From a virus (Duplodnaviria; Caudoviricetes): a stretch of 64,000 nt of DNA. Positions 1 through 60,576 of the stretch are shown piece by piece (within the stretch, counting starts at the first letter, position 1; every line of letters starts with the position of its first letter). The translations under genes and the position numbers were made by a program. Under the pieces are notes generated by a model. That model saw nothing but the letters and a program-made list of their open reading frames with translations, was not told where the DNA came from and searched no databases. The DNA lies in IMG/VR virus record IMGVR_UViG_3300032295_003763, positions 64,001 to 128,000 of that record. One strand, written 5' to 3'.

Positions 1-1452
1 AAGTTCAGAAATTTTGTCTAAAAGTTGATCCAATGTAGGCTTAGATTCCTTTTCTTTTGCCATTTTTTGAATCTTACTTATTTCATCTTCCATTTCTGTT
101 TCAGGCGATTCCTCATATCTAGGCTCTTCCATTTCTGGCTCTTCTGAAGTAGCACCCATCGCATTTGCATAAATTGTAGCTACTTCTTCGATTGGCCACA
201 TATCTCTATCTATTTCTTCATTAAATATTCTTTTGAACAAATCCATAAATACAGCATCAGGTGTTATTTGTTGATCATATAGATCACGTAAAACATTATA
301 CATCATGGTTTCATCATGTTCCGTAATAACACCTTTCTTAATCAAATGATTCTCGACATCAATAAAGAACTCTCTGAATATATTTACGATCATAGGTCCA
401 TAAACAAATCCCTGTTGTTCCTTAAACCAATTCTCAGTCTTTGCTTTAATTCTTTCTAGCTTCTCTTTTTCATACTTCATACCAAAATGAGAGATTACTT
501 CAAATACTCCTTTAATCATCTCTTGAATTGCTAAGATTAAGCAAAAAGCTTTAACTTCAATAACAGGCTTACCGTCTTTATAGATAACATGCATTCTCGC
601 TGGAACGATAGCTCCACCACCGCCCATTTGACCACCTTGTTGATCTTGCATTTTTTGCATATATTCCATCATTTGCTTGAACATTTCAATATCCATATAC
701 TTATGAGACTCTAAACTAGTTCTCATAAATTTAAAATACTTTTCAAGTAAATCTGAATTTATTTGATCAACGAGGTCTTGCATATCCTCATCAAACATAC
801 GACCTTGACTAGTTAAAGCAAATCCTTGTGTAAGTGCATTTATAATTTCTCTTTTGCTAATTGCTAGTTTAATGTCTTCGTCAGTTTCTTCTTTTCCCTT
901 TTCTGCTTTAGGTACATCTCCACCCAAATTACTTTCAGGATCTCTTACAAACTCTACATCAAATTCTAAATCAGAGAATTGAGGTCCCTTTTTCATCAAT
1001 GCGGAACCATCAATAATCTTCTTAACAATTTCTCTAGCTATATTTTCAAGTTCTTCATCAGAAAACGTTTCTTGTTCAATTCGACCTATTTCCATCATTG
1101 TTTGCATGGCTTCCATACCCATACGTTGAAATTGCATTTGGTCAGGTCTAGGTAAACTCTTTTTAAACTTGCCAAAAGATGGAAGGTCTTCCAAACCTTC
1201 TTTAATAGAATATTTAGAATCTGATTTATATAAAGAATTAAAACGTTCAATACATTTCTTTAACTCTTCCTTCCAGTTTTTAGGAACTGGATTAATACTT
1301 GGTTGAGGTGGATTAAATGGTGAAGGTCTCTCTGGAGTTCTTTCTGGAGTCTCTACAGGTGCTTCTTTTGGGGCTGGTTTAGTTTCAGGTTCAGCTGCTG
1401 GCATATTATATGCATACTCATTTAATCCAAGTAGATATTTCATTTTTTTCAT
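1..1452 (-). CDS. Large hypothetical protein (partial, runs off the window start); not in the supplied ORF track; CTS-like leader and Pro/Glu-rich linker
   Basis: Manual translation from the ATG at 1452 (or 1443): MKKMKYLLGLNEYAYNMPAAEPETKPAPKEAPVETPERTPERPSPFNPPQP...; frame appears open to position 1; GATATATA at 1480-1487 upstream. Confidence 0.85.
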   Translation of the reverse strand, partial: MKKMKYLLGLNEYAYNMPAAEPETKPAPKEAPVETPERTPERPSPFNPPQPSINPVPKNWKEELKKCIERFNSLYKSDSKYSIKEGLEDLPSFGKFKKSLPRPDQMQFQRMGMEAMQTMMEIGRIEQETFSDEELENIAREIVKKIIDGSALMKKGPQFSDLEFDVEFVRDPESNLGGDVPKAEKGKEETDEDIKLAISKREIINALTQGFALTSQGRMFDEDMQDLVDQINSDLLEKYFKFMRTSLESHKYMDIEMFKQMMEYMQKMQDQQGGQMGGGGAIVPARMHVIYKDGKPVIEVKAFCLILAIQEMIKGVFEVISHFGMKYEKEKLERIKAKTENWFKEQQGFVYGPMIVNIFREFFIDVENHLIKKGVITEHDETMMYNVLRDLYDQQITPDAVFMDLFKRIFNEEIDRDMWPIEEVATIYANAMGATSEEPEMEEPRYEESPETEMEDEISKIQKMAKEKESKPTLDQLLDKISEL

Positions 1453-1496
1453 AATAAATAAATGTTTTTTGTGATATACTATATATCCGTTTAATC

Positions 1497-2060
1497 CTAT
1501 TGTTTTACAAAAATAGGATTTTTTGTTTTAATGAAGAAATTTACGAGATAGTCGAAATATTGTTGTCCACCATACTCTACTAAAACAGGTGGACCCATCT
1601 TTTCAACATTTTCTAATCCATCTACTGTTAAAGTGTTCCATACCCAATATGGTTGTGGATTATCAGGTGTCCCTCTTTTACCTAACTCTAGATTTCCTCT
1701 TATTATCGAAGCGAATTTTTGGAAACCTTCTTGAGTTATAGGGGAATAGAATGTATAACTTTTTAAATTATTCCAGGGTGTAGTTACAACAAAGAATTGA
1801 CAATTTAAATTTACACCAACTACATTTATAATCAAATCCCTGATTTTTTCAATATTAAATCCACCTTCAATACTATGAAATTTTTTAATTTCATCTAAAA
1901 AAATCTTACCTACATCAAGAGTAGGCATTTGCATATTTGATTGTTTAGCATTTAAATGTTGTTCGGTCATTTTGACCTTATTGCGATCTCCCCAACCTCC
2001 AAATAGATTCAACAATTCAGGTTCATTAGAAACAAACGACCATTCTTTATTCTTGCTCAT
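1497..2060 (-). CDS. Hypothetical protein
   Basis: 187 aa ORF overlapping the end of the upstream gene; no recognisable motif. Confidence 0.7.
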   Translation of the reverse strand: MSKNKEWSFVSNEPELLNLFGGWGDRNKVKMTEQHLNAKQSNMQMPTLDVGKIFLDEIKKFHSIEGGFNIEKIRDLIINVVGVNLNCQFFVVTTPWNNLKSYTFYSPITQEGFQKFASIIRGNLELGKRGTPDNPQPYWVWNTLTVDGLENVEKMGPPVLVEYGGQQYFDYLVNFFIKTKNPIFVKQ

Positions 2061-2790
2061 AATCTTTCTTTAAATCAATAATATTTAAATCAAAATCTGT
2101 AGAATCTTTTTTATAACCAGACATAGACTCATCGTACATATCGCTTGTCCATTGATGGTTAAAAAACAATTCATCTGGAGTATTAAAACCATACATTTCA
2201 AGTATAGATTTTTGCTGTTCCAGTACTTCCTTGCCTCTCCAATTATGTCCGATGACTATAAGACCTGCTTCTTTACCTTTTACTGGATTAGATTCTTTTA
2301 AAGAGGACTGCATGTTTTCAATCCATGTTAATCTTTCTAATAACTTCTGATAAGTTGCATTCATCGATCCCCATCTAATTGAACCGAAAAATACAACAAC
2401 ATCTGCTTCATGAATAGCTTTAGAAATTCTCCACAATTCATCATCTGGGTTATTTAAGGATGCCCAACATCTCATAAAACCATCTGGGTTCTTCTCTTTA
2501 TCATCTAAAATTGCTTTTTGTTCACCACAATGATTACCATCTCTATGAGAAACATTCCCCTCACATGGATAAATTTTTAATTTAAATGCGTCAAATATTC
2601 TCGGCTTTGGGTCAATCATAGAAGCCATAACTTCAGCTAATTCTGATGATTTAGGAATTTCTTTATCCCATCTGTTAGATGTTGTTATAAATACACATTC
2701 CTTCCCTTGTAAATACTCAATTGTATTGAGCAAAGGTTTGAATTCACCAGAAGATGCTTCAAATAAACTAAATGGAGTTATATTCTTCAT
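2047..2790 (-). CDS. Flavodoxin-like NAD(P)H-dependent FMN reductase / iron-sulfur flavoprotein family protein
   Basis: Flavodoxin-fold motifs TTSNR...SSEL, DVVVFFGSIRWG, KLLERL, KGKEAGLIV; Cys cluster PCEGN...HCG...RCW. Confidence 0.75.
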   Translation of the reverse strand: MKNITPFSLFEASSGEFKPLLNTIEYLQGKECVFITTSNRWDKEIPKSSELAEVMASMIDPKPRIFDAFKLKIYPCEGNVSHRDGNHCGEQKAILDDKEKNPDGFMRCWASLNNPDDELWRISKAIHEADVVVFFGSIRWGSMNATYQKLLERLTWIENMQSSLKESNPVKGKEAGLIVIGHNWRGKEVLEQQKSILEMYGFNTPDELFFNHQWTSDMYDESMSGYKKDSTDFDLNIIDLKKDYEQE

Positions 2791-2842
2791 TTTAAACTTT
2801 TTATGATTTAAAGTATATATCTAATAAATAAAAGTTCATACT

Positions 2843-3049
2843 ATGAATTACGCTAGAAAAGTAAGAGAATTAGAAAAGATTTACTTTAATGAAAGTAAAG
2901 AGAATGAAAGTAATAAGTTCGAGTTAATAGAAACTCACAAAAAATATGAAGAACTTAAAACTCTATGTAAGGATCTTTTGAATAATTATGACAACAAAGA
3001 AAATATAGAAGATTCAGTAATTAAGATAAAATATCACCTTATGGGTTAA
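2843..3049 (+). CDS. Small hypothetical protein
   Basis: 68 aa ORF filling the gap between two minus-strand genes. Confidence 0.5.
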   Translation: MNYARKVRELEKIYFNESKENESNKFELIETHKKYEELKTLCKDLLNNYDNKENIEDSVIKIKYHLMG

Positions 3050-3495
3050 TCTTTCTTCAAACGATTATAAAGATCTTTTTTTATAGCGGATAAATGTTTG
3101 CAGAATTTAGGTATCCTCTGGGGATTCATTTTTTTTAATGGCTCTCCATTTGAAGATATGATTTCAGAAGCATCCTTTGTCCAAAGTAACCATTCATTTT
3201 CATATCTAAAATCATTACAATCACAATGAGCAATAACATGTTGATCTAAGTTATCTAAAGTTATAACTTTATCACTTAAAGGCTTCACCCATTGCTTATG
3301 CTTATTACCACTCGATACAGTGGTTGTCTGATATACATACTTGTTCTTTTTAGTTCTGGTCACAAATTTAACAATAATGTCTTTAGCCCTTTCTTTATAT
3401 CTCTTTGGAGTTCTTTTATAAATATAATTAAATCTTAATTCGTTAAGACTGGTATCTAATTTATTATGTAAAAAATCTATGAATGATGTCAGCAT
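3046..3495 (-). CDS. SWIM-type zinc finger protein
   Basis: HCDCNDF...FCKHL matches CxC-Xn-CxH. Confidence 0.7.
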   Translation of the reverse strand: MLTSFIDFLHNKLDTSLNELRFNYIYKRTPKRYKERAKDIIVKFVTRTKKNKYVYQTTTVSSGNKHKQWVKPLSDKVITLDNLDQHVIAHCDCNDFRYENEWLLWTKDASEIISSNGEPLKKMNPQRIPKFCKHLSAIKKDLYNRLKKD

Positions 3496-3506: not shown

Positions 3507-4187
3507 TTAATTATTTATTTCTGAAAGATGCTCTTGGAACAAATTATAAATAGTAGGTGTCCACAAATCCTTGGATAAATCTATTGGGCTTAAATTAGCA
3601 GCATTCTTTATAGTTGGGTCTGCTCCAAAATCTAATAACAATTGAACTGTATCATCCGATTCTCTTTCTAATGCATAATGTAAGGGTGTATTACCCTCAT
3701 CGTCTTGTGCATTTGGATTTATACCTTGGGCTAAAAATAATTCAGTAAGAGGCAGGTTAGCATATTCAGCCGCTAAGTGTAATGGAGTAGCAGCATTAAA
3801 TTTGCTTTTGATGCTCTTTACATTCGCACCATACTCAATAAGTGTTTTTGCAACATCTACCCCCTTATAGTTTTCTGCTACACTAAATATAGGGGTAAAA
3901 CCCGATTCATCTTCTATATTTGGATCCATACCATAATCTAAAAGCATCTTAACTAGATCCGCTTTAGTTTCATATCGGCATGCTATATGTAAAACAGTTT
4001 CACCAAAAGCATCATCAATATACTCCAAGTTTGCCCCAAGTTCTATAATATTTTTTACATAATCAATATTCGCATCTTTGGTTTCTCTTTTCTTAATCTC
4101 ATCAATAATTAATTTAGTCTTATTATTGGGAGACATAATCATATATTCATATGGATCAAATTCTTCAAAGAGTTTAATATACTTCAT
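3507..4187 (-). CDS. Ankyrin repeat protein with CTS-like leader
   Basis: GETVLHIAC, GFTPIFSVA, ATPLHLAAE, GNTPLHYAL repeats; N-terminus MKYIKLFEEF. Confidence 0.92.
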   Translation of the reverse strand: MKYIKLFEEFDPYEYMIMSPNNKTKLIIDEIKKRETKDANIDYVKNIIELGANLEYIDDAFGETVLHIACRYETKADLVKMLLDYGMDPNIEDESGFTPIFSVAENYKGVDVAKTLIEYGANVKSIKSKFNAATPLHLAAEYANLPLTELFLAQGINPNAQDDEGNTPLHYALERESDDTVQLLLDFGADPTIKNAANLSPIDLSKDLWTPTIYNLFQEHLSEINN

Positions 4188-4196
4188 AGTAAATCT

Positions 4197-5483
4197 TTAG
4201 ATTATAATAGGTTCTTTAGGCTCACCCTTTTCATCTGATTCAACATCGGGCCATACTTTACCTGACTTAGCAGTTGGCTTAGATTCTTCTTTCTTTTTTT
4301 CTTCCTCTTTTGCGGTAACATAAGGTAAATAAGAATCACTAAGATTTTCTAAAGCCCATCTGGTCTGCTTTCCTATTCTACCATCTACAGTCAATTTTCT
4401 TCCATCTTCGTTCATGGAATTTTCTTGAAAACGAATGACAGCAGAATGTGTAAGTTCACCAAATTTTCCAGTTATACCACCTTTAAATATACCCATTGCT
4501 TGAAGTATCTTTTGAACAACTTTTATTATTGCACCTTCTTGGATACCATTATATCCAATCCATGTTTTATTAGGGGAATATGATTCTAGCTCTTTAGCAA
4601 ACTTAGATGCTAATTTAGAACTGATCTTCTCCTCTTCTATCAAAATACAATTATCAATAAGTAATTCTAAACAATGAACTAAAACTGTTGCTCTCCATGA
4701 TATATCTGCACCTGGAAGCAAATCATAATACCGCATGTGATAATATGTGTCCTGTATAGATTCTGCTAATTTCTTAAAAGGCTTTTCTATAACACTCTCG
4801 AACTCAGTCAAGTAATCAATTTCTGTACTCTCTCCGAATATTGAATGGAATGTGCTTATGTCATATTTTTTAACAAAGTCAGATAATCCTAAAAATGTTT
4901 GAGAAGGCTGATAATTACCCATAAGATTAGTTAAAAATACACCAATCATATAAATAGGATTTCTATATTTTCTCGTTTTAATTAAAATTTCTTTCTGAAC
5001 AACATCGATTGGACTACTTGCATCAGTAAAGTCAGCATCAGATCTTTCGATTTTTACTTTCTTCAAATTTTTAATCTGGTCTGGGAGAATAGTGCTTAAA
5101 TAAGATTTATAATTATTTATATCTTGCTTAATGACCTTAGCTGCCTTTTTAACTTTATCTTTATTTTCCTTTAGATATAACAAGTCTTGATATACTTCTA
5201 CATCCGTCTGACTAGTAGATTTCTCAAGTAATGTCATCATACCGCTTGTACATGACTTATAACCAACATCAACCATATTCCATAGTGATGATGTTGGAAG
5301 GAGAGCTTCTTGGAATGTTTCATTACCATTAAATATTTCAATAGTTGATTGTGCTGAAAGAGCAGTAATTTGATAAAGGTCTGACATTCTGAACTCTTTC
5401 AATGTCAAACCATAATAACCATCATAAATGCCAGCTATTTCATTTAATTTAGCTTCTTTGAATTTACTATATCGTGTAATCAC
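4197..5483 (-). CDS. Protein with C-terminal peptidoglycan-binding domain (PG_binding_1-like)
   Basis: IKVVQKILQAMG...GKFGELTHSAVIRFQ...LTVDGRIGKQTRWAL; GTG start. Confidence 0.85.
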   Translation of the reverse strand: MITRYSKFKEAKLNEIAGIYDGYYGLTLKEFRMSDLYQITALSAQSTIEIFNGNETFQEALLPTSSLWNMVDVGYKSCTSGMMTLLEKSTSQTDVEVYQDLLYLKENKDKVKKAAKVIKQDINNYKSYLSTILPDQIKNLKKVKIERSDADFTDASSPIDVVQKEILIKTRKYRNPIYMIGVFLTNLMGNYQPSQTFLGLSDFVKKYDISTFHSIFGESTEIDYLTEFESVIEKPFKKLAESIQDTYYHMRYYDLLPGADISWRATVLVHCLELLIDNCILIEEEKISSKLASKFAKELESYSPNKTWIGYNGIQEGAIIKVVQKILQAMGIFKGGITGKFGELTHSAVIRFQENSMNEDGRKLTVDGRIGKQTRWALENLSDSYLPYVTAKEEEKKKEESKPTAKSGKVWPDVESDEKGEPKEPIII

Positions 5484-5513
5484 AGCTTTAAATTATATTT
5501 GCTTGTATATATC

Positions 5514-5550
5514 AAAAAAATAACCCTCTTTTGAAAATATCAGAAGAGGG
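5514..5550 (-). terminator. Rho-independent terminator
   Basis: CCCTCTT/AAGAGGG stem, with an A-run on the plus strand giving a U-tail on the minus strand. Confidence 0.65.
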
Positions 5551-5571
5551 CTGGAAAATTATAAAATTTAT

Positions 5572-6504
5572 TTAATAACCAAAGTTTTTCAGATTATCTG
5601 GATTGAAAGATGTGGTAGATGCATCAACACTAACTCTCCTAGTCTTAGTAATTGTGCCTTTAGGTTTAGAAACCACTGATACCTCAGTATCGGCTTTCTT
5701 ATCATCGGATTTTACATCTTCAATTATATTTTCTGATATTACTTCAGCCAATCCTTCTACATAGTATTTATATGCAAGTAAAGAAATATCTCTGATGATA
5801 TAATTCCCTATGTTATTTTTATCAAATGAAGAAATAGAACTTTTTGAAATTTTAAAACCAGGTGTATCGGAATAACCTGTCAATATTTCTGGCGATATTC
5901 CTAATTTAGGATCAAAATCCCTCGAAGTCAATGCGGATTTGAGGTCTTGAATGAATTTAGTTTTATTACTAATTTTTTCAAAAACATCTCTTTGTGAACT
6001 GTTTAATTTATCAAATATTCCTTTAGATTTTAATAAATCTACTAATTTATTTTCAGAAAGTAATTTAACAACATTTGAAGGATTTTTCAAATTTTCACTA
6101 GCAGATGCCATCACATAACTTTCACTACCTATATTTGGAATAGATATTGAATCTAATATATTTTTATCAGTTCTATATTCATTCTCCAATTCCTTTAAAA
6201 CACTAGCAGGGAAATCAGTATAATTTGGATTAGTATATTTTTCAATCTTTTTCCACATTGGATTAAATACATCTTTAGCCTTAAAATTCGTAGTTCCATT
6301 TTCTGGCGTAATAATCGTATTTAAGTCCGTATTAGCTGTACCTAAGATTCTTTTAACCAATTTATTATACATTTCAGAATGCACATATTCCATCAAGGTT
6401 TTATCTGTATAAACAGATTCATTTACATTATCAATATTATATTCTGAATTTGAATTATTTTCAGAAATAAATTGACTATAATTTAATATTTTTGACATAT
6501 TCAT
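5572..6504 (-). CDS. Hypothetical protein with CTS-like leader
   Basis: 310 aa; MSKILNYSQFISE...VNES. Confidence 0.8.
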   Translation of the reverse strand: MNMSKILNYSQFISENNSNSEYNIDNVNESVYTDKTLMEYVHSEMYNKLVKRILGTANTDLNTIITPENGTTNFKAKDVFNPMWKKIEKYTNPNYTDFPASVLKELENEYRTDKNILDSISIPNIGSESYVMASASENLKNPSNVVKLLSENKLVDLLKSKGIFDKLNSSQRDVFEKISNKTKFIQDLKSALTSRDFDPKLGISPEILTGYSDTPGFKISKSSISSFDKNNIGNYIIRDISLLAYKYYVEGLAEVISENIIEDVKSDDKKADTEVSVVSKPKGTITKTRRVSVDASTTSFNPDNLKNFGY

Positions 6505-6508
6505 CTAT

Positions 6509-8029
6509 TTATTTTACAGAAGACACATTATTAGGATTTGTATCCATAAAGCTTGTACTACCTACATTAGACAATGGACCCTGTGCATATTTTTGTTTTA
6601 GTGCTTGCACATAACCATTAATAAGAGCTTTAGTCTCTCTTCCAATTTTACCATCTTGTAATTTAGCACCAGCTTTCATTTGGAAATCCTTTACCCCACG
6701 CTCTGTTATAGTATCAAATACTTCAGAATTCAATTTACTCTTTTCAACATTACCAGAATAAATCAATAAGTTGTTAATCAATTTAACAACCTCTGGGTTC
6801 ATTTTTCTTGATCCAACTTTATAAACAAGTCTATCGGTTGTAAAAAATCCAAGATTTTCTAATTTTTCTACAATCTCTGCTTGTGCCATAGCTTTATTTC
6901 TAAGAATATTAAACTTCTTTTCACCCGCTTCCTTTTTAATTGTTTCTTCTTTCTTTACTACTAAACTTTCAACTTCTAAATTCAAGTTTATAAGTTTCAA
7001 AGAAACTAAAGAAACCACACACATATACATTACCTGCATAGATGGAGTAAAGATATTCTTTGTATCTTCATCTGGGCTTTGCAAAAACACTCTCTTTAAA
7101 AGAATTGAACTAACTTCATTTAACAATTCACCCATAGGTTCAAATACACCAGAATCTATTGAAGGTATAAATTGTTTCATAGCCATAATTGCATCAGGCC
7201 CAACTACTCCGCTAGTAAGATTTATTGAAGTATAATTCTTTCCAAATTTAGTTGAAAGCTGTTGACCATAAGGATACATGTTTATAACCATTTCATAAAA
7301 GCCTGCTAAACGGTCATATAAATCTACAGATTTAATAAGTTCATTAGGTTCTAACAAAGATCCAACTAAAAGTTTAGGATTAGATTGTATTGTATCTGAT
7401 TCAATCTCTTCTAGTTCCATACCGTCTACAACTGTATACAATCCTTTCAGACCAACAGTTGATGCTGACTGTTCTAAACTAGTCAAAGTTTGTTTAATTA
7501 TACTAGATATATCTAAATTATACAATGAAATAAAACTTTGCTTCAACGCTTCTGATTTAAAATCTATTGTAGTAGATTTCATAAAATTCTTTACAGCTTC
7601 ATCAATTTTAGGTATAACTGATGATATTCCACTAGGACTTGTAATTTCTGAAATCTTTTTCTGTCTTTCACCATAACTAGTTTTAGTAGCATCAATTACA
7701 GCCTGAAAACCAGCTGATAAGTCCTTTTCTATGAAGAGGATTCTAGTATCCATATAACTGATTTGAGATCTAATTAATTCAAATGCACTCGTATTAGATG
7801 CCTTATCTTTCCCCATAACTGGAGCCAATGATGGCATATTAGATTTAATAAATGTATGGATCGCATCAGATTTTTCTAAATCCAAACCTTCAAATAGTTT
7901 GTCGATCGTCAATTCAGACAATCTAAATTTAGCATCTTGATCAAATAGACCGAACCAGTCAGATGAAATAAAATTACTTTCATTCAATCTGAATTGATCA
8001 TGGTTATTATAAAAGTTTTTAAAAAGCAT
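6509..8029 (-). CDS. Protein with C-terminal peptidoglycan-binding domain; paralog of 8301-9719
   Basis: VKLINNLL...FDTITERGVKDFQ...DGKIGRETK; shares PS[ML]Q and LExLGFF motifs with 8301-9719. Confidence 0.8.
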   Translation of the reverse strand: MLFKNFYNNHDQFRLNESNFISSDWFGLFDQDAKFRLSELTIDKLFEGLDLEKSDAIHTFIKSNMPSLAPVMGKDKASNTSAFELIRSQISYMDTRILFIEKDLSAGFQAVIDATKTSYGERQKKISEITSPSGISSVIPKIDEAVKNFMKSTTIDFKSEALKQSFISLYNLDISSIIKQTLTSLEQSASTVGLKGLYTVVDGMELEEIESDTIQSNPKLLVGSLLEPNELIKSVDLYDRLAGFYEMVINMYPYGQQLSTKFGKNYTSINLTSGVVGPDAIMAMKQFIPSIDSGVFEPMGELLNEVSSILLKRVFLQSPDEDTKNIFTPSMQVMYMCVVSLVSLKLINLNLEVESLVVKKEETIKKEAGEKKFNILRNKAMAQAEIVEKLENLGFFTTDRLVYKVGSRKMNPEVVKLINNLLIYSGNVEKSKLNSEVFDTITERGVKDFQMKAGAKLQDGKIGRETKALINGYVQALKQKYAQGPLSNVGSTSFMDTNPNNVSSVK

Positions 8030-8126: not shown

Positions 8127-8288
8127 TTATTCTTCTAACAACTTATAAACTTCTGTGAAATCAAAGTTATTACCATCTTTTAGAATAGTAAAACTCATTT
8201 CTTTTTTATCTTCTTCGAAAAGAATAGAGTTACTTTCGTTTATTGTGTCATTTGAAAGAAAATCATTGAATTTTAATATTTTCATCAT
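8127..8288 (-). CDS. 53 aa protein with CTS-like leader (absent from the ORF track)
   Basis: Manual translation MMKILKFNDFLSNDTINESNSILFEEDKKEMSFTILKDGNNFDFTEVYKLLEE*. Confidence 0.75.
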   Translation of the reverse strand: MMKILKFNDFLSNDTINESNSILFEEDKKEMSFTILKDGNNFDFTEVYKLLEE

Positions 8289-8300: not shown

Positions 8301-9719
8301 TTAAGCTTTATTATCACTTGTAGTATCTACACCCTTAACTGCCACTTTATCTTCTTCTGATTTACCTTCCATTCTAGTTTTTAAATCTTCTACAAAAGTA
8401 GATATTGATAATTTTGTATTTTTACCTATTCTTCCATCAGATTTTAAACCTTGTCCGTTAATCTTAATTTTCGATTGGAAAGTTTTTACAGCTTCACCTA
8501 ATATATCCGCATCGAAAGTACCTCTATTGATATAACTTGATGATTTAGGTAAAAGACCCATTTCGCTGAAAAGTTTTTTCAAAGAAACGATCATATCCTG
8601 CTCAATCTTAGAAAATTTCTTTTTTTCATAAAAAATCTTTTCACTTTCAAAGAATCCAAGCTTTTCGAGTTCACCATACGAATCTAAAATACCTTTAGCT
8701 TTAGCTTGTACTTTTTCGGATAAAATAGATTTTTTCTCTTCTTTCTTCTCTTCACCCTTAACTGATTCTACTTCTGTTGAAGCAATAGCCTTTAATACCA
8801 TAACTGTAGTTAAAGAAATGAATAGTGCTTGCAAAGAAGGAATAGTGATATTCTTCTTATATTCAGCACCCAATAAACCATATTGTTCTTCTACAATTTC
8901 TTTACAGATAGAATTCAAAAATTCTTTAAAATCATCTATCTTTGAAGGAATAATCTTATTCTTTAAATCAGCTGAAATAGAAATAGAACCTACAATTGAT
9001 TCTAAATAATCATAAGGATTATTATTATATGATATAAATTTCAATCCATCGATATTCATTGATTTTAATACCATTTCTAATAACATAGAAACTCTTACAA
9101 TAGGATTCTTACCCATAATATTCTTTTCTATAGTAGAATCAATATCAGTTTCTTTTAACCACAGGAAAGAATCTAAAGCAAATGAATCAGGTTCAATCTC
9201 TTTCAAACCCATATCATCTACCTTTTGATACACGGAATCCTTTAATCCAGTTTGATTTCCTTGAATATTTGCCGTTAAAGCTTTAAAAAAGATTTCTAAA
9301 ATTGTATCTTGACCCTTTAAAGATCTAACATTAGAAACAAGTTTTTTAATATCTTGTTTATTTTCTTTTAAAAATTCAGAAACTTTTTCTACAATATCCT
9401 TTTCAGCTTTCTTTACTGCTTCTTTAACATAATTCAATTGTTCTTCAACAATTCTGTCAGCAGTTGTATCTTCAGCTGTACTTTCATTAAAGAGATCTTT
9501 AGCTACTGGTAAATTTCCAGATAGCTTTGTATAAGTTTCAGAATCAGTGTCGATTTCCAAGCCTCTTAAAAGATGGTAAATACTAAGTTCTTTTAAGTAT
9601 GGTTTAGCACTTGTTCTAAAAAGTCCGCCTGAAAAACTTTCGTTAATGAAAACAGTTTTGGATTTCAAAGCTTGTTTCAATTCATCTACTCGTTTTTGGT
9701 AAAAATTTTCGTCAATCAT
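8301..9719 (-). CDS. Protein with C-terminal peptidoglycan-binding domain; paralog of 6509-8029
   Basis: GTFDADILGEAVKTFQ...LKSDGRIGKNTK. Confidence 0.8.
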   Translation of the reverse strand: MIDENFYQKRVDELKQALKSKTVFINESFSGGLFRTSAKPYLKELSIYHLLRGLEIDTDSETYTKLSGNLPVAKDLFNESTAEDTTADRIVEEQLNYVKEAVKKAEKDIVEKVSEFLKENKQDIKKLVSNVRSLKGQDTILEIFFKALTANIQGNQTGLKDSVYQKVDDMGLKEIEPDSFALDSFLWLKETDIDSTIEKNIMGKNPIVRVSMLLEMVLKSMNIDGLKFISYNNNPYDYLESIVGSISISADLKNKIIPSKIDDFKEFLNSICKEIVEEQYGLLGAEYKKNITIPSLQALFISLTTVMVLKAIASTEVESVKGEEKKEEKKSILSEKVQAKAKGILDSYGELEKLGFFESEKIFYEKKKFSKIEQDMIVSLKKLFSEMGLLPKSSSYINRGTFDADILGEAVKTFQSKIKINGQGLKSDGRIGKNTKLSISTFVEDLKTRMEGKSEEDKVAVKGVDTTSDNKA

Positions 9720-9734: not shown

Positions 9735-11828
9735 TTATCTATTTGCTAATGCCGCTTGCATTTGTTGTATATATCCCTGTGTCTGCTGTCTTTTTTGATA
9801 TTCTTCCTTAGAAATTGTACCCTCTAAGGAACTTTTAACTACTCCCGACAAATATTCTATCTGTTTAGCAATATAGTTAAGTGTTGGAAGATCAGCTTTA
9901 CCATTTATTTCTATTTCTGTACTTGTAGGTTTTGCATTCGTTTGGATAGAAGCTACAATTTTAGCCATCTCTTCATCATATTTACCATCAGCTTCGCCTG
10001 AATATATTCCAAGTTTTTTAAGACCCATTTGCAACATTTTAACATCCTCACCTTCATCACCGATCTGTATATACTTTCTTTCTTGACCTGTGCTATCCTT
10101 TCTGTTTGTAATACCAACAGGTTTATCGAGATTTTTACTATCTGCTGTTAAAGGTATTTTACCTTGATAGAACTCTTTTTCAAACACATGGAAAGCTGAT
10201 GAATAAGCAGATACTAGTCCCATTGTGACTAATCCTAGAGATGGGAGTTCATCATGATTCTCCCATTCCCGTTCTAAGCTATTCACAAAACTCATTGATG
10301 CGGTAGAATTTGCTTTAATATAATATGGAAAAGCTTCGCTATCTATTTGTTGTATACATTTTTGATAATCAGAATCTGACATGATTTTAGAATTATTCAA
10401 ACTAGTACACCATGCTTTAATTTTATCGGTAATATCTTGTGACTCTAATGATTTTTTAAAGCTTTCTCCAATTTCATCGAATGTAAAGAATGGTTCTAAT
10501 TTTTGATTTGCTAAATCCTTTTCAAAAACGGAAACTAATTCTCTCACTGGTTCTTTCGTAGTATCACTATCTGATTTTTCAAACCATTTTGCAATCCAAT
10601 ATATTCCATAAGCCATTCCTCCAAATTTTAATATACCCCAAGCAGCCGCTGGTATTTTAAAAATAAATCCACCTAAAGTAAATACATTAACTATAGCCTT
10701 AATGCTATCAGTTAAACCCTTTCTTAAATTTGTAAAGAATTTCCACAGACCTTTACCACCCCTGCCATCTGTTGTTTTGGTTTTTTTATTTTTTAAATTT
10801 TCACGGAATTTATCCCAAAATCCTTTCGCCTTTTCTCCCTCATTAGAATTAGCTGTAGGCATGCTTGGATCAGCTTTAGGTGTTGCATCTACATTTGGCG
10901 GTGAATCTACATCTGGAGTTTTTGTAGATGGCTTACCTTGTGTGTGAGTTGGATCAACATTACCAAGATTTATATTATCCGCATCTTGTTTAATTTTAGT
11001 TGTCGTATCCTTCAAAGCATCCTGTGCATCTTTAGGTGCTTTGCCTATATTCTCTGCAACATCATCAGCTGCGTTGGCGATTTTTTTTGCAGCATCATCA
11101 ACAGAACTAGATGGGGTATAATGCATACTATAAGTAAACGCTTTACCTGTTGATTGTGCAGCCCTCGCTGCATCATCAGAAGCTTTAGCAGCACCACCAA
11201 GTCCCTCACCACCTTTAAATAATTTACCTATTGCTTTTGTAAATGCTTCAAATCTCGATTCATTTACATATTCATACGATTCAGATGTATTTTGCCCTTT
11301 AGGTTCGATGACCGCTGTATTTAATGATTGAACTAATTGATTTACTGGTTCTTTAGATAGATACCAATTCACTAAAGAATTTCTAATTATAGTTCCTAAA
11401 GTAATTGGATTACTATTAAGAATTTTAGAAGTTTCTTCATCTATACCTTCTGAATTAAATTTTAAATCAGAATTAGCAGATGAATTTAAAATATTAGCAA
11501 TATTAGCAACATAATATTTAGCAGCAACTTCCAACATTAATGAATCTTTCTTAAGAGGTTCTGCAAAATCTAATTGTTCAGCTCTATCCTCATCCATTAT
11601 ACCCATAAGTTGAGCATAAATATTTGCTGGTATATTACCAATAGGAGTATTATAAAGTTTCTTAATATTCTCATCTATTTCTATACCCTCAGACCCAGGA
11701 ATACTTAAAAGAGGTTTTCCATATTCGGTAGCAAATTCAGAAGCAGGCTTAACTATCTTCTCATCGATCCATGATGGTAGACCTTCTTCATTTAACTTGT
11801 TTTCATATTCATTAAATCTCTTAATCAT
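9735..11828 (-). CDS. Large protein with internal hydrophobic helices and C-terminal peptidoglycan-binding domain
   Basis: IQIGDEGEDVKMLQMGLKKLG...ADGKYDEEM; hydrophobic AIVNVFTLGGFIFKIPAAAWGILKFGGMAYGIYWIAKWF. Confidence 0.85.
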   Translation of the reverse strand: MIKRFNEYENKLNEEGLPSWIDEKIVKPASEFATEYGKPLLSIPGSEGIEIDENIKKLYNTPIGNIPANIYAQLMGIMDEDRAEQLDFAEPLKKDSLMLEVAAKYYVANIANILNSSANSDLKFNSEGIDEETSKILNSNPITLGTIIRNSLVNWYLSKEPVNQLVQSLNTAVIEPKGQNTSESYEYVNESRFEAFTKAIGKLFKGGEGLGGAAKASDDAARAAQSTGKAFTYSMHYTPSSSVDDAAKKIANAADDVAENIGKAPKDAQDALKDTTTKIKQDADNINLGNVDPTHTQGKPSTKTPDVDSPPNVDATPKADPSMPTANSNEGEKAKGFWDKFRENLKNKKTKTTDGRGGKGLWKFFTNLRKGLTDSIKAIVNVFTLGGFIFKIPAAAWGILKFGGMAYGIYWIAKWFEKSDSDTTKEPVRELVSVFEKDLANQKLEPFFTFDEIGESFKKSLESQDITDKIKAWCTSLNNSKIMSDSDYQKCIQQIDSEAFPYYIKANSTASMSFVNSLEREWENHDELPSLGLVTMGLVSAYSSAFHVFEKEFYQGKIPLTADSKNLDKPVGITNRKDSTGQERKYIQIGDEGEDVKMLQMGLKKLGIYSGEADGKYDEEMAKIVASIQTNAKPTSTEIEINGKADLPTLNYIAKQIEYLSGVVKSSLEGTISKEEYQKRQQTQGYIQQMQAALANR

Positions 11829-11837: not shown

Positions 11838-13055
11838 TTAATTTTGAGTCGCTACATCTTCTTCAGAGAAATCACTAATCAAATCATATATGACTTCCCC
11901 CAATATCCAAAATGCATAAATATTTAAAAGAAACATCACAATAGGTCCTGAACCTGGGATTATAATGTTAGATATAGATGCTATAATTGTATCTATAAGA
12001 ATATACTTTCCAAAATCTGATAAAGCATTTATTAAAATAGCAAATGTAGGCCCTAACATTTCAAATTTAAAAGGTCCATTTATCCCAAAATGTTCAGTTA
12101 AGAATTTTGAAGAATATTCAAGTGCTTCATTTCCATTTGCTTTAATATATTCTGAAAATTCCTTTATCCAACTAAATGGTGGCAAATTGTCTAATTTTTG
12201 TATACACCATTTATAAAAATCATCAATCATCTGTATAGATTCATCTAATCTTCTCATATCTTTAAAATTAGGAATCTTAATACTAATTAGATTTAATTTA
12301 GAATGATTATTTACATCTATTGCATTTTCTTTTATTGCATCTGGTATAAATGTTAATAAGTGTTCTTTAATGTTATTTTGAATTGAATTAACATTATCTG
12401 ATTCATTAACAACTTTATTAATAGACATAGTAACCTTTGAAGCAAAAACATCACCCTCGATAATTTTCCCGATGGATTCGACAAACATATTGCTCAATTG
12501 ACCTGTTTCTTTTGTTAATGATTCCCAAATAAATGCATTTTTATCAAACACATCTTCATTTAAAGATTCTTTAATTGAGTTAATCTGTTGATTTATGGAT
12601 ATAGTCATTTGTCTCTTTAGTGATCTATTCCCCGCAAACCATTTATTAGTTTCTATTTTTACACTGTCCCATGCAGTTTGTATACCTTCCATGATTTTAT
12701 CAACCACAGAGCTTATAGCTGACATTAAATTAGTCCCTAATTCAACTACCCAGTTAATAGCACCCTTCACAGCTTTCTTTGAAGGTTCTATAATATTTTT
12801 TTGAATAAAGTTTATAGCATCAGAATACAAATCTTCTTTCAATAATCCCCATTGATCGATTGATAATTGTCTTTCTGATATAAATTCCAAAACAAGCTTT
12901 TGCTCTCTTTCTAAATAAATATCTTCATTTCCCAATATACTTTCAGCTATCGGGATATATGAATTATTTTTAAAACCAAAATTATGCAATCTTTGGGATT
13001 GAAGATATTGGTCAAAATTTAATATAGTTTCTCTTTTAGGTATTTGCATAGACAT
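11838..13055 (-). CDS. Hypothetical protein with C-terminal hydrophobic helical hairpins
   Basis: MLGPTFAILINAL...IIASISNIIIPGSGPIVMFLLNIYAFWILG; many [LIV]xE[SD] motifs; ATG at 13055 preferred over TTG at 13058. Confidence 0.8.
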   Translation of the reverse strand: MSMQIPKRETILNFDQYLQSQRLHNFGFKNNSYIPIAESILGNEDIYLEREQKLVLEFISERQLSIDQWGLLKEDLYSDAINFIQKNIIEPSKKAVKGAINWVVELGTNLMSAISSVVDKIMEGIQTAWDSVKIETNKWFAGNRSLKRQMTISINQQINSIKESLNEDVFDKNAFIWESLTKETGQLSNMFVESIGKIIEGDVFASKVTMSINKVVNESDNVNSIQNNIKEHLLTFIPDAIKENAIDVNNHSKLNLISIKIPNFKDMRRLDESIQMIDDFYKWCIQKLDNLPPFSWIKEFSEYIKANGNEALEYSSKFLTEHFGINGPFKFEMLGPTFAILINALSDFGKYILIDTIIASISNIIIPGSGPIVMFLLNIYAFWILGEVIYDLISDFSEEDVATQN

Positions 13056-13119
13056 CAATAATTTATAGTTCTATATATCTTTTTTCAAACATGTGCTTTC
13101 AAGTTATTACCAACGATAT

Positions 13120-14097
13120 TTATCCCTGCCAACGAGATCTACTACTACCAACAGTATCTCTTACATCAACATGAACGAAGTTTGGATAAATCCCTAAACC
13201 ACCTTGATGGAACGAATCAACATAATTATAAAGTTCACTAGGTGTAACACCTGATATCGTTATATCTGCTGCGTTACCAAACATATGTTGAGATCTTGTA
13301 GCTACGCCTTTACTTTTACTTCTACTACGCAATCCAGCATTATATGATGGGGTTCTATATCCTGAATTTATGTTAATATCTTTTCCAAAATGTTCTCTTA
13401 TCTTCTCAAGTAATTCTATCAAATAAGGATTTATTAAAATTACATCAGATCCGTCTTTACAAGCAAATTCAGATACTTTGAAATTAGGAGAAAGGTTTTT
13501 ATCACCATCTTTACTGTTGCTATATTGTATAGATTTAGAAATGTATTGTTCAAATTCACTCGAAGGGTAATCAACACCTCTATTTACACCCTCACCCTTT
13601 GTAACCGAAGAAGCTGGTATTTGTATCTTCAAGTCTGGTGTTGGGGTGACAACAGCAGGTATTTTAGGTTCTTTAAGAACACCTTTTGTATCTTCTTCAC
13701 CTTCTTTAGATTCAAATTCCAATAAAAATTTTATGAATGACAATGGAATTTGATTTTCAATCTGTATAGGTAAATTAAAATCTTTAGATATAGTTTTAGC
13801 TGCATCTAAAGTTACTTGATCTAAAAGTCCATCTGCACTATGATTCTTGAGGTATCCTAATCCAATCAAAATAGATTGTAGAACTGAAATGTCTTGACTT
13901 CTATCATTTACATTTAAGACCTTTAAACCATCTATAAGCTCTTGTGAGAAATATTCTCTAGTTATCTCTTTAATTAGGTCACTCTTCTCTTTTTTATCAG
14001 ATTTACTTGTAATTAAACCAATAGCTTCTTGTGCATTTTGAATTTGTACTTCGTTTAAAACAAATTCACCAAAGCTGTATATTTTCTTTCTATTCAT
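13120..14097 (-). CDS. PG-binding module plus M15A (YcbK/DUF882-like) Zn peptidase
   Basis: LSPNFKVSEFACKDG, INSGYR, SQHMFGNAADI, GGLGIY..FVHVDVR. Confidence 0.9.
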   Translation of the reverse strand: MNRKKIYSFGEFVLNEVQIQNAQEAIGLITSKSDKKEKSDLIKEITREYFSQELIDGLKVLNVNDRSQDISVLQSILIGLGYLKNHSADGLLDQVTLDAAKTISKDFNLPIQIENQIPLSFIKFLLEFESKEGEEDTKGVLKEPKIPAVVTPTPDLKIQIPASSVTKGEGVNRGVDYPSSEFEQYISKSIQYSNSKDGDKNLSPNFKVSEFACKDGSDVILINPYLIELLEKIREHFGKDININSGYRTPSYNAGLRSRSKSKGVATRSQHMFGNAADITISGVTPSELYNYVDSFHQGGLGIYPNFVHVDVRDTVGSSRSRWQG

Positions 14098-14102
14098 AAG
14101 TA

Positions 14103-15059
14103 TTAAGCTATCATATTTTGAGAATCTACTCTCGACAATTCAAAGTGCATACCGTCCTTTCTTCTATTAAAATGACCACCCCAAAAGAACCCAAGTTTTA
14201 GTGCCGCTGGGACTAATTCCCTAACACTACCCTTTTCACCAACAGCTGGGGGCATCTTACCTAAAGGATTACTACGTGTGTTAATGTCAAATGCTATACC
14301 GAAAGCATGAGGACTTAAAGTACTTTGAGTTCCCCTAATTACTCTAGGGACAAAGCATCCTGCCCAGTTTTCTATTTTGCTCAAAAGTCCAAGATTTTCC
14401 CATTCTTGCCAAAGTGCAAGTATTGGTTTTGCAGCAAGTCTATGGCAACGAATTTTAGTGAGTTTAGGAGGATTTTGTATTTTAGACAATTGCGGTAAAT
14501 CTATTGTAATAATATTTTCTTTTACAAAATTATTTTGAACAGTAATATAATCACCTGATGCCTTTACCCATACAATTTTTCCGAATAAATTTTCCTTTTC
14601 AACTAAATTTAATGAATGTATATCAGTTGGTTTTGGTGGCCAGTTGTATTTACCATCTTTATACTTAGGATCATCGTATGAATCCTTTTTTTTATCAGTA
14701 GAAAATTCAAGCTCACTTGATTGATATGTTGTAAATAAATCTATAACTTCTTTAGATATAGGTTTATTCACATCTACTGATACATTAGACTTAGAAGCAA
14801 ATTTTTTAATAGCTTCCATAGTCGTTTGATCCAGTTGCCCACTCATTTGTGATGCTGACAAATACCCTAACCCTAATAATAAAACTTGAATTATTTTTAC
14901 ATCCTGTGTAGTTTCATTAAAATTAATATCAGAACTACCCTTTTGTAAGTTTGAAGATATAAATCCCTTACTAACCTGTTGAACAATTTCAGATTTTTCC
15001 TTTGAGCTTTTGGAATTCTTTAAAGAATCTATAATATCCCTAGGTGTCTCTAATTTCAT
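14103..15059 (-). CDS. PG-binding module plus M15 (Peptidase_M15_4, L-Ala-D-Glu type) peptidase
   Basis: GCFVPR, LSPHAFGIAFDIN, WGGHF..DGMHFE. Confidence 0.88.
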   Translation of the reverse strand: MKLETPRDIIDSLKNSKSSKEKSEIVQQVSKGFISSNLQKGSSDINFNETTQDVKIIQVLLLGLGYLSASQMSGQLDQTTMEAIKKFASKSNVSVDVNKPISKEVIDLFTTYQSSELEFSTDKKKDSYDDPKYKDGKYNWPPKPTDIHSLNLVEKENLFGKIVWVKASGDYITVQNNFVKENIITIDLPQLSKIQNPPKLTKIRCHRLAAKPILALWQEWENLGLLSKIENWAGCFVPRVIRGTQSTLSPHAFGIAFDINTRSNPLGKMPPAVGEKGSVRELVPAALKLGFFWGGHFNRRKDGMHFELSRVDSQNMIA

Positions 15060-20626: not shown

Positions 20627-20818
20627 ATGAAAACTTTTACACAAACAACAAATCAAATCAGAAAAAAACTATTTGAAATGGATAATGAAGCAGCTAGAGA
20701 AACATCTGCTAGAAATTATCTCCAAAAGTTATATGAATTCGATATCAAGTCTATTACTGAATTGAATGAAGATGAATTAAAAGATTTTATCAAAAGTTTA
20801 AGAGTTATAGAGGGCTAA
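20627..20818 (+). CDS. Small protein with CTS-like leader
   Basis: MKTFTQTTNQIRKKLFE; GATATATA at 20594-20601. Confidence 0.7.
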   Translation: MKTFTQTTNQIRKKLFEMDNEAARETSARNYLQKLYEFDIKSITELNEDELKDFIKSLRVIEG

Positions 20819-49523: not shown

Positions 49524-49868
49524 TTAAATATTTCTAAAAAATTCATCATCGATCGAGATAAAATCTGTTGATTTTTGCTCATGGATTATATTCCATGTTT
49601 TAGCCATACCGTTTTTAATTACTTGAGAATAATAAGCAAAAACATTTTCAGATTTTTCAGGATTAAAATTTCTCCAATGTCTCATAACATCTGCTATACC
49701 AGAAGCTACACAATCTTCTCTATCCTCTGGATATTTGTATTTAAGAATCTTTGACATTTCATTAGACATTTTACAAATTAATTCAACAGCACGTGGTGTA
49801 AGTTCATCTCTTTTTTTCGATTCTATAATCTCTTTTAAAAGTTCTTTATTATTAACATACTGTGCCAT
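49524..49868 (-). CDS. gp55: Late transcription sigma factor (T4 gp55-like, short)
   Basis: YVNNKELL, YKYPEDREDC, NFNPEKSENVFAYYSQVIKN. Confidence 0.8.
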   Translation of the reverse strand: MAQYVNNKELLKEIIESKKRDELTPRAVELICKMSNEMSKILKYKYPEDREDCVASGIADVMRHWRNFNPEKSENVFAYYSQVIKNGMAKTWNIIHEQKSTDFISIDDEFFRNI

Positions 49869-49969: not shown

Positions 49970-50227
49970 TTAAATACTAGCTTCTTTCTTTAAAGCTTCA
50001 ATATACTTCTCAAGGCTTTCTGCTGCATTTTTTACCTTTGTACTGTTCAAACTAGCCGATTCTAACTTTGTACCTAAATCTTTAAGATTACTTATGATTG
50101 TTGGTAATTGACTTATAGCTTGATTCATCGTAGCAACTGCTTTCGCTTTATCAGGTGCAGCATAAATGCTATTAGCATCTTCCTGCTCCTTTATCGAAAT
50201 ACCTAAAAATTCAGAAAAAGATTTCAT
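49970..50227 (-). CDS. Small protein with CTS-like leader
   Basis: MKSFSEFLGISIKEQ. Confidence 0.75.
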   Translation of the reverse strand: MKSFSEFLGISIKEQEDANSIYAAPDKAKAVATMNQAISQLPTIISNLKDLGTKLESASLNSTKVKNAAESLEKYIEALKKEASI

Positions 50228-59436: not shown

Positions 59437-59447
59437 AAATTTATTCT

Positions 59448-59657
59448 TTATTTAAAATTATATTCTGAAAGTATATTTTTTAAATTGTTTGGAAATTCTT
59501 CAAAAGATATTATAGTATAATTATTTGCATCTAAATCATTATCATAAATCCATTGATCTATATCTTCACGAGATTCAAATACTTTGTTTTTATCCGATTC
59601 TTTAAGAATCTGTATATCATAAATATTACAATTTGTTTGTAAAACTATGAATTGCAT
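59448..59657 (-). CDS. Small hypothetical protein
   Basis: 69 aa ORF. Confidence 0.6.
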   Translation of the reverse strand: MQFIVLQTNCNIYDIQILKESDKNKVFESREDIDQWIYDNDLDANNYTIISFEEFPNNLKNILSEYNFK

Positions 59658-59689
59658 AAGAATAATTATGTTAATATAATAGTTTTTTA

Positions 59690-60211
59690 CTAATTATCCA
59701 AATTTTTATTATCATTTTCATCATCTAAATCATCCTTTCCCCCATGTCCATCTAATTTATCTTCACCTGATTCTTCTATAAGATCATCAATATAGTCATC
59801 TTCTTCCAATTCGTAATCCATATCATCTATTTGAGCAGTCGTATAAATCCCCTTATCTATACATTCCCTTGTAAAATCGTATTCAATTTGAGCTTCTGTG
59901 GGCTGATGCCAGCTAGTATTCGTAATGATTGCCATAGCTGCACTTATAGGTACTTCTAAGTTTACATTCTCAAAATTACTCATTGTTGATATTTTTTCAA
60001 ATAAATCTACTAAAAAATTTTCAGCTGAAGATTTTAATGTGGCTGAATATTTTGTTTTCAAAATAACATCTCTATCTTTTAAAGATAAGTCTTTATCTGA
60101 TAACAAATTAGGTGTTTTTAGTTTTTTAATGTTTCCATCTAATTTTAAATTATTCTTAATTTTTGAATCAGAACCTTCTTTTTTTTCGTTATTTCCTTTA
60201 TTCTCTTTCAT
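59690..60211 (-). CDS. Hypothetical protein with acidic C-terminus
   Basis: 173 aa; GATATATA at 60239-60246. Confidence 0.7.
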   Translation of the reverse strand: MKENKGNNEKKEGSDSKIKNNLKLDGNIKKLKTPNLLSDKDLSLKDRDVILKTKYSATLKSSAENFLVDLFEKISTMSNFENVNLEVPISAAMAIITNTSWHQPTEAQIEYDFTRECIDKGIYTTAQIDDMDYELEEDDYIDDLIEESGEDKLDGHGGKDDLDDENDNKNLDN

Positions 60212-60327
60212 AATAGTCCGATTATATTTGATTATTTGTATATATCAATTTACCATAAATTACTCAAAATGAACTTTTAAAAAAATGATATTATTTTACG
60301 ATATATAAGAAAAAACAAGGATTTACG

Positions 60328-60576
60328 ATGGCCAACAGAATTGTAAAAACATTTGAAGAATTTATTTCTTTTGAAATCGAAGATTCCGAAGTTCATATAC
60401 ATATTGAACCAAAAGAAACTGAAGAAATCTCTGAACCTGAAATCACTACAGGTGATGATGTAATTGTTGATATCCCTTTGATGAACTTATCCCAAGATGA
60501 TTCAGAAGAAGACATGGATTCCGAAGAAGATGAAACACCAGAAAGTGATACTGATGGTGAAGAAGACGAAGAATAA
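60328..60576 (+). CDS. Very acidic small protein with CTS-like leader
   Basis: MANRIVKTFEEFISFE; GATATATA at 60300-60307. Confidence 0.75.
   Translation: MANRIVKTFEEFISFEIEDSEVHIHIEPKETEEISEPEITTGDDVIVDIPLMNLSQDDSEEDMDSEEDETPESDTDGEEDEE

Follow-up and report, generated by a model that had tools for sequence, protein, structure and literature searches.

Introduction

The internal proteins IPI, IPII and IPIII of bacteriophage T4 carry a capsid-targeting sequence (CTS; MKTYQEFIAE|A, the bar marking the cut), which is removed by the prohead protease gp21 (Mullaney and Black 1996, reviewed in PMC9026906, PMC5694885, PMC3012670). Amber suppression assigned targeting mainly to residues 4 and 7 of this sequence, and processing to residues 8 and 10 (PMC9026906). 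The tagged internal-protein set of the T-even phages has been read as arms-race cargo (PMC9026906, PMC3012670), and the T4 literature proposes the CTS as a general way of adding cargo (PMC9026906). In the phiKZ-like giants, many proteins of the inner head, presumed to be ejected, are processed by the prohead protease, which also cleaves itself near its C-terminus (PMC5694885, PMC7411985, PMC10052503). Capsid targeting is not mentioned in the best-ranked literature on huge phages or megaphages. Here we analyse a CTS-like N-terminal leader carried by unrelated proteins of a 64,000-nucleotide stretch of viral DNA (the window), bases 64001-128000 of the 199,927-bp IMG/VR virus record IMGVR_UViG_3300032295_003763. 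Coordinates are those of the window, or of the whole record where preceded by "genome".

Our favoured reading, to which we give a probability of roughly 0.7, is that the leader is this phage's greatly expanded version of the T4-type capsid-targeting and cleavage tag. For the record, CheckV estimates a completeness of about 52%, and the GC content is about 30%. A nucleotide search among cultured phages found no close relative, the one match being of 222 bp, to a Lak phage. The database entries nearest by portal protein come from uncultured huge phages (LR756500-LR756504, 32-39% identity), from the Lak phages of Prevotella, from PTm1 and PTm5 of Tenacibaculum, and from Sphingomonas phage PAU. 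The virus analysed here is a member of the T4-core lineage of Bacteroidota huge phages.

A shared leader at the N-terminus of one gene in six

Among the 216 open reading frames (ORFs) called across the whole record, at least 36 (about one in six) begin with the leader, 17 of them within the window. This catalogue was produced by iterating a seed position weight matrix (PWM), and is a lower bound. The consensus of the iterated matrix has 10-11 residues, [IML]-[KL]-x-F-[ES]-[ES]-F-[LI]-[NS]-E, in which the two phenylalanines carry 3.1 bits (F4) and 2.5 bits (F7) of information. Consensus frequencies are 0.77 for F4, 0.59 for F7, 0.55 for L/I8 and 0.29 for E10. The motif starts at residues 1-12 in all 36 catalogued genes, which are spread over at least seven regions of the genome.

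The specificity of the motif for N-termini was measured on held-out genes. The seed PWM, built from 13 window leaders aligned at their first [FY]..[FY], was applied to the 145 genes outside the window. At 8 bits or more, it matched 10/145 N-termini as compared with 13/2204 internal windows (Fisher p=3e-7), and at 6 bits or more, 15/145 as compared with 26/2204; N-terminal enrichment in the held-out genes was 9-24-fold relative to internal windows. Shuffling the residues within each N-terminus, which keeps composition, gave 1.6±1.2 matches (maximum 6 in 500 shuffles), versus the 10 observed. An earlier reading of the same DNA, made from the letters and ORF translations only (hereafter the sequence-only reading), had proposed comparing the frequency of the motif at N-termini with that in shuffled or internal background, and the motif is indeed commoner at N-termini. 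The unconstrained expectation-maximisation motif search that we ran on 71 window N-termini was over-fitted (lambda 0.44, many spurious sites), and the seed matrix with the held-out test was used instead.

Two further scans gave the same picture. When the whole record was searched in six frames, 33 of the 47 matches at 12 bits or more fell no more than 10 codons from the ATG of a real ORF, and [LIV]NE was enriched 3.4 times within the first 20 residues of proteins. Outside the record, in a sample of 80 loci of other phages (1070 ORFs) fetched via the portal protein, the window-only matrix matched 9.0% of N-termini versus 1.0% of internal windows, and the matched N-termini spanned 18 cargo families.

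Synonymous codon use in the leaders is that of the genome for F, L, E, K, N, I, S and Y (p=0.14-1.0). Because of this, and because homologues of the RimK-type ligase described below keep the leader, we conclude that selection acts on the peptide and not on the RNA. The residues of the leader alternate between charged and hydrophobic, as can be read directly in sequences such as KLFEEFLNE. A Sec or lipoprotein signal peptide was rejected, since the leaders do not combine a positively charged N-region with an unbroken hydrophobic core of about 10 residues or more. N-termini of the signal-peptide type are present on other genes of the record, for instance MKKLILLVLLSTSMLAQSQ at genome 13451.

Correspondence with the T4 targeting sequence and head genes

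The 13-seed matrix, built from the window only, scores the CTS of T4 IPII and IPIII (MKTYQEFIAE|A; T4 genes taken from GenBank AF158101) at 10.3 bits, and its best position is residue 1 in both proteins. Internal positions reaching 10 bits in the proteome of this phage number 12 among 54,067. Positions 4, 7 and 8 are the most conserved of the motif, and at position 10, the fourth one critical in T4, Glu is found more often than any other residue. As in the T4 CTS, the leader is at the extreme N-terminus, extends over 10-20 residues, and has aromatic residues at 4 and 7, an aliphatic at 8 and Glu at 10, in register. The usual ending of a leader is [LIV]-[NS]-E, and the next residue is S, A, N or E. 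The likeness to the T4 CTS and to the gp21 [IL]xE cleavage site, put forward in the sequence-only reading, is upheld by the in-register match and by the [LIV]-x-E that usually follows the leader.

The head genes expected beside such a tag in T4, an S77 protease, a gp20 portal and a gp23 capsid protein, are found in the same genome as the tag on otherwise unrelated proteins. The protease of gp21 type (Peptidase_S77, PF03420; 46 and 43.6 bits, above the cut-off) is encoded at genome 166459-168477 (-), where the S77 domain sits at the N-terminus of a 672-residue protein. Pfam also recognises a tail sheath, a T4-type terminase and, at genome 164687-166429, the Gp23 major capsid protein. The N-terminus of the capsid protein reads MQVLNE|A, and a second site, ..CHYHTLNE|S, follows at residues 41-43; it precedes the part of the protein whose alignment with mature T4 gp23 is at residue 27 of the latter. 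Both motifs are kept in close relatives, and the first is kept in distant relatives as MANLINE|A. In the protein that carries the protease, the junction with a scaffold-like tail reads LSRLNE|S, and the C-terminal ~500 residues contain many [LIV]-A-E and [VIL]-N-E|S sites. The cut motif of the leaders thus appears to fit the sites predicted in the capsid propeptide and in the protease-scaffold protein.

Differences from T4 are mainly of scale and of cargo. At least 36 tagged genes are found in half a genome here, versus three internal proteins (plus Alt and core proteins) in T4, and the present set is not limited to small basic proteins but includes recognisable enzymes and cell-wall hydrolases, with lengths of 50-700 residues. 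Unlike in T4, the P2 residue is mostly Asn or Ser (LNE, ISE), many leaders have a spacer of 3-5 residues between the aromatic pair and the cut site, and the protease continues into a scaffold-like tail built from CTS-like tandem repeats, a kind of repeat absent from T4 gp22. The arrangement is reminiscent of the polymorphic internal-protein genes of T-even phages (T2, T6 and others), where a conserved tag is found on fast-changing, non-homologous proteins (PMC9026906, PMC3012670). However, the tagged genes lie here in at least seven regions instead of one locus, and are far more numerous.

With the phiKZ-like giants (phiKZ, 201phi2-1, SPN3US), the phage shares a gp21-related protease (PMC5694885, PMC7411985, PMC10052503). 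We rejected the long propeptides of the phiKZ/SPN3US type as a description of the present leaders: phiKZ-like propeptides are mostly longer than 100 residues (about 80-160) and have no shared short motif, whereas the leaders have 10-30 residues, and SPN3US has AxE and phiKZ SxE as cut motif (PMC5694885), whereas P3 is L, I or V here. Also, no scaffold has been identified in phiKZ-like phages, whereas this phage has a scaffold-like tail fused to its protease. The T4 CTS system is known from experiment, and the version described here from sequence alone; those defining features of the T4 CTS that are open to this kind of comparison are all present here or consistent with what we found. By all appearances, the system is of the known T4-type kind, greatly expanded in number and in cargo.

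Leader-like repeats in the scaffold-like tail

The C-terminal ~500 residues of the protease-scaffold protein are rich in repeats and in Glu, with a VNESVNESVNESINE run and several LNE|S sites. They contain 12-15 tandem repeats of 14 residues, Y-x-x-[YH]-[LIV]-A-E-x-[LV]-D-x-x-I-x (e.g. ..YSNYLAENLDKSIQ..). No Pfam scaffold family matched this region; the homologous gene of PTm1 carries the annotation "prohead core scaffolding protein and protease". Among the proteins of the present phage, the protease-scaffold protein alone has several internal matches to the leader matrix. The 62,707 residues of the proteome contain the strict T4-CTS core [FY]..[FYHW][LIV].E 43 times, including 12 times in the scaffold repeats and 10 times at N-termini. 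An alignment of 12 relatives (34-87% identity) shows no variation in the aromatic pairs or the A-E of these repeats, and distant relatives have the same repeats.

This suggests that the leader may imitate one 14-residue scaffold repeat (Y-x-x-Y-[LI]-A-E..) and co-assemble with the scaffold. Such likeness would offer a testable physical basis for targeting, undescribed even for T4 in the literature that we consulted on the CTS. Taken further, any protein gaining one N-terminal repeat would co-assemble, the protease that dismantles the scaffold would free the cargo, and in this lineage of Bacteroidota huge phages about one sixth of the genes, some coding for enzymes, would have become injected cargo that can be recognised from sequence. 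We hold this extended proposal as tentative, and would sooner bet against it than for it.

In PTm1 (AP019524 206093-224680), protease and scaffold are also fused, but the repeat is a different one (..W-I-K-x-D-[FY]-T-K-[EQ]-L-S-E..), and small proteins start MKKLYDHISE|N or ..KLYSVISE|N. The classes of leader motif available are three: this clade, PTm1 and T4.

Unrelated proteins behind the leader

Once the leaders had been trimmed, BLASTP at E<=1e-3 divided the 36 proteins into 32 unrelated groups. Only two trios were joined, the three MKY[LV]KLFE[NS]WLNE proteins and three ankyrin-type proteins. The Pfam folds found behind the leader are ankyrin repeats, FMN_red, Peptidase_M15, PG_binding_1 and the RimK ATP-grasp.

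The RimK-type ligase allowed the boundary between leader and enzyme to be placed. The Rimk_N Pfam domain starts at residue 23, and in an AlphaFold2 model (30 homologues), residues 1-17 have a predicted local distance difference test (pLDDT) score below 50, with a confident fold from residue 22. Since both the domain and the modelled fold begin after it, the leader is an appendage outside the enzyme fold. Homologues down to 57% identity all start ..[IVL]-[LI]-x-[FY]-x-x-[FY]-[LI]-N-E|[SA]. Among the 30 homologues, N14 and E15 are invariant and F12 is conserved in at least 90%; the next invariant residue is G28.

The sequence-only reading was right that the helicase, gp46/47, IF3, Hsp20 and the glycosyltransferases lack the leader: none is found at their N-termini, nor at those of the ORFs in the gp46 and gp47 positions. 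Pfam confirms a UvrD helicase, IF3, Hsp20 and one glycosyltransferase-like protein. The UvrD-type helicase is encoded at 31830-33296 (+) and the small heat-shock protein Hsp20 at 34787-35191 (-). Translation initiation factor IF3 (42515-43045, +) has both of its domains and no leader; a match of the iterated matrix to it was rejected as a false positive, since IF3_N extends from residue 18 and there is no aromatic pair.

Promoter and gene order

The sequence GATATATA is about 20 times enriched upstream of genes. It has 64 sites per 200 kb, 54 of which are within 100 nt upstream of an ORF on the same strand, usually 28-41 nt before the start codon. Co-occurrence of this promoter with the leader, suggested by the sequence-only reading, was found: it precedes 18/36 leader genes versus 35/180 others (odds ratio 4.1, p=2.5e-4). 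As it also precedes the sheath and collagen-like fibre genes, we infer that it is a late-type promoter. PHROGs assigned ten promoter-bearing large genes to families of "unknown function" or found no match, which was no help in dating the promoter.

Thirteen leader or propeptide genes form one block directly downstream of the portal gene. Cell-wall domains were found in six genes of the block, PG_binding_1 in four and M15 peptidase in two, of which the one at 14103-15059 is without leader. Cell-wall cargo next to the portal fits proteins acting at entry. In relatives with 85-93% portal identity, the block is syntenic and its leaders are kept. Relatives at about 40% portal identity have a T4-like order of portal, a small MK.IKTFEQFISE|A protein, protease-scaffold and capsid gene, where the small tagged protein takes the place that the core proteins gp67 and gp68 have in T4. 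The otherwise syntenic backbone of relatives also has additional tagged genes inserted at varying points, for example at 13936-14208 of locus L083 and 5358-6695 of locus L082.

The favoured reading and its alternatives

In the T4-type reading, the leader would be a short amphipathic N-terminal peptide with two aromatic residues three apart, then aliphatic-x-Glu. Late in infection, it would dock the tagged protein on the scaffolding core of the assembling prohead. The prohead protease, of the S77, T4 gp21 type, would then cut after Glu, typically at [LIV]-[NS]-E|[SANE], and the mature cargo would stay in the head until the next infection, when it would leave together with the DNA. All of this, from docking and cleavage to packaging and ejection, is transposed here from T4. 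On the evidence above, dozens of unrelated proteins, enzymes included, are probably packed and injected.

Several observations weigh against this reading. About 10 of the 36 leaders, such as that of the ankyrin protein (MKYIKLFEEFDPYE), have no [LIVFM]-x-E just after the motif; these proteins would be targeted uncut, be cut within the motif (L-F-E), or carry the leader for another purpose. Some of the cargo would be unusual for head proteins (the flavin mononucleotide (FMN) reductase-like protein, the ATP-grasp ligase), and dozens of protein species would need to share the space in the head. T4 gp22, the scaffold of T4, shows no CTS-like repeat, and scaffold mimicry is therefore not a general rule for T4-type heads. 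Finally, the head operons have only one-mismatch variants of GATATATA, and its putative late role is deduced from the genes downstream of it.

The leader could instead be a propeptide that the head protease or another Glu-specific protease removes, a safety catch or maturation signal keeping enzymes inactive, with no role in capsid targeting. Such a role would suit the several cargo proteins that are potentially harmful cell-wall hydrolases, as well as the RimK family, where the cut motif (N14, E15) is the best-conserved part. But the aromatic pair holds as much information as the cut site and matches the targeting residues of T4, and it is this pair that the ten or so leaders without adjacent cut site retain. 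Moreover, T4 gp21 is described as acting inside proheads (PMC5694885), so its substrates must be there anyway. We consider a purely protective propeptide unlikely.

Another explanation sends the tagged proteins to a late assembly or site other than the head interior, for example to the tail or baseplate, to a system of degradation or of chaperones, or to the membrane where the portal is initiated. The cell-wall-binding domains of many of them would allow action from the tail tip, and the block lies between head and tail genes. However, the motif equals the head CTS of T4, its core is common to the repeats of the head scaffold and its cut site to the capsid propeptide, and the distant relatives place a tagged small protein between the portal and protease-scaffold genes, in the gp67/gp68 position. 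Sorting to these other places seems to us improbable.

At about 30% GC, with leader residues (K, I, F, N, Y, E) that all have AT-rich codons, the motif might be a by-product of AT-rich coding, or a translation-initiation signal within the first codons in a host without Shine-Dalgarno sequences. This is very hard to reconcile with the composition-keeping shuffles (1.6±1.2 versus 10), with the ordinary synonymous codon use of the leaders, with highly expressed structural genes (capsid, sheath, portal) that do without the motif, or with the same peptide in T4, whose base composition differs. Common descent from one paralogous family, with C-terminal parts diverged beyond recognition, would account for the true paralogues (the MKY[LV]KLFE[NS]WLNE and ankyrin-type trios), yet is barely credible for 32 unrelated groups among 36 proteins, for folds as different as ankyrin, FMN_red, M15, ATP-grasp and PG_binding, and for a RimK domain that has many cellular relatives and whose Pfam model begins only after the leader.

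The sequence-only reading had called the leader a portable packaging tag that defines the injected proteome, an interpretation that now appears partly supported. Portability is borne out by the unrelated cargo and by the position of the leader outside the RimK fold, and packaging, cleavage and injection are extrapolated from T4. The phrase "defines the injected proteome" is too strong, as at least one gene of the portal-adjacent block, the Peptidase_M15_4 gene, is without leader.

If the tag works as in T4, the proteins delivered with the DNA could be listed from their genes, with dozens of entries. The list would comprise cell-wall-binding and cell-wall-cutting proteins, the ankyrin protein, the flavoprotein, the RimK-type ligase and many unknowns. 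This would change the picture of what a giant phage delivers at time zero, and would point to candidate anti-defence and takeover proteins. Already tested by evolution, the tags would also offer natural packaging signals for delivering proteins beyond the E. coli/T4 system.

Leader genes of the window

The block is headed by the T4 gp20-type portal gene (17394-19022, -; Portal_T4 PF07230, E=7e-67), which has no leader, and extends down to about 2047, all of the genes described here being on the minus strand. First downstream of the portal is a gene of 154 codons without Pfam family (16859-17323), whose product starts MRIFKEYKEQKVNE|A, with GATATATA at -35; its leader is kept in the orthologues of close relatives. 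It is followed by a 597-residue protein (15056-16849) starting MRYSNVSESFFDFLKN, a weaker match with no adjacent cut site, and by the Peptidase_M15_4 and PG_binding_1 protein without leader (14103-15059). The next product is a cell-wall peptidase of 325 residues (Peptidase_M15, 13120-14097), which starts MNRKKIYSFGEFVLNE|V and contains ..IYSFGEFVLNE. In the 406-residue protein at 11838-13058, the motif (..RETILNFDQYLQSQ) is at residues 12-22, and GATATATA at -21. A PG_binding_1 protein of 697 residues (9735-11828) starts MIKRFNEYENKLNE|E.

Two probable cargo genes have longer propeptides. The 472-residue product of 8301-9719 (-) has a propeptide of 27 residues ending ..VFINE|SFSGG, of which the cut motif is kept in relatives while the residues upstream of it vary. 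The 506-residue PG_binding_1 protein of 6509-8029 (-), which is below the PWM threshold, has MLFKNFYNNHDQFRLNE|S, ending LNE|S. Between them is a small leader ORF of 53 codons (8127-8288, -; MMKILKFNDFL..INE, starting MMKILKFNDFLSNDTINE|S).

The remainder of the block, also on the minus strand, consists of five genes. The 310-residue protein at 5572-6504, without Pfam family, starts MNMSKILNYSQFISE|N, and its leader (..ILNYSQFISE) fits the strict T4-CTS core Y..F-I-x-E. The PG_binding_1 protein at 4197-5483 (428 residues) starts MITRYSKFKEAKLNE|I, with GATATATA at -30. The ankyrin-repeat protein at 3507-4187 (226 residues) opens with MKYIKLFEEF, and no [LIV]xE adjoins the motif downstream. The 149-residue protein at 3046-3495 starts MLTSFIDFLHNKLDTSLNE|L (MLTSFIDFL..SLNE); it has no Pfam match at E<=0.01, and the label "SWIM" that it had been given could not be confirmed. 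Last is the FMN_red flavoprotein (2047-2790, 247 residues), which starts MKNITPFSLFE|A and has GATATATA 31 nt upstream.

Three further leader genes of the window lie away from the block. The RimK-type ATP-grasp ligase (33289-34707, -; 472 residues) starts METKTILDYSSFLNE|S, with ..ILDYSSFLNE, and has GATATATA at -34. Two small proteins without Pfam family are encoded at 49970-50227 (-; 85 residues, MKSFSEFL..IKE, starting MKSFSEFLGISIKE|Q) and at 60328-60576 (+; 82 residues, ..IVKTFEEFISFE, starting MANRIVKTFEEFISFE|I, with GATATATA at -28).

The shared leader on unrelated proteins of the window, as first noticed, was thus confirmed, all the quoted N-termini being found at ORF starts. Twelve of the 14 listed are solid; MKYLLGLNEY (an ORF running off the window edge, 1-1452) and MKTFTQT..LFE (20627-20818) are weak, having no aromatic pair and scoring below threshold. 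The list had not included the leaders of 11838-13058 and 15056-16849, nor the longer propeptides of 6509-8029 (LNE|S) and 8301-9719 (INE|S). Its estimate of about 18 leader proteins was right for the window, the whole 200-kb record holding at least 36.

Other observations

At genome 25709-26710 (-), the longest ORF opens with hydrophobic residues, but a perfect leader, MRTFYEYLNE|S, is encoded from Met40 onwards, which is therefore the probable true start. At genome 12509-18730, the three paralogous leader genes (MKY[LV]KLFE[NS]WLNE|) alternate with five opposite-strand genes that have signal-peptide-type N-termini.

A small sigma-like protein with a weak Sigma70_r2 match is encoded in the T4 gp55 position, at 49524-49868 (-), and provides context for the putative late promoters. 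Behind a GATATATA site, the gene at 37329-38945 (-) encodes a protein of 538 residues that starts with collagen-like G-x-x repeats (GTQGVQGTQG..) and is probably a fibre. A second collagen-repeat protein is encoded at genome 174469-175734.

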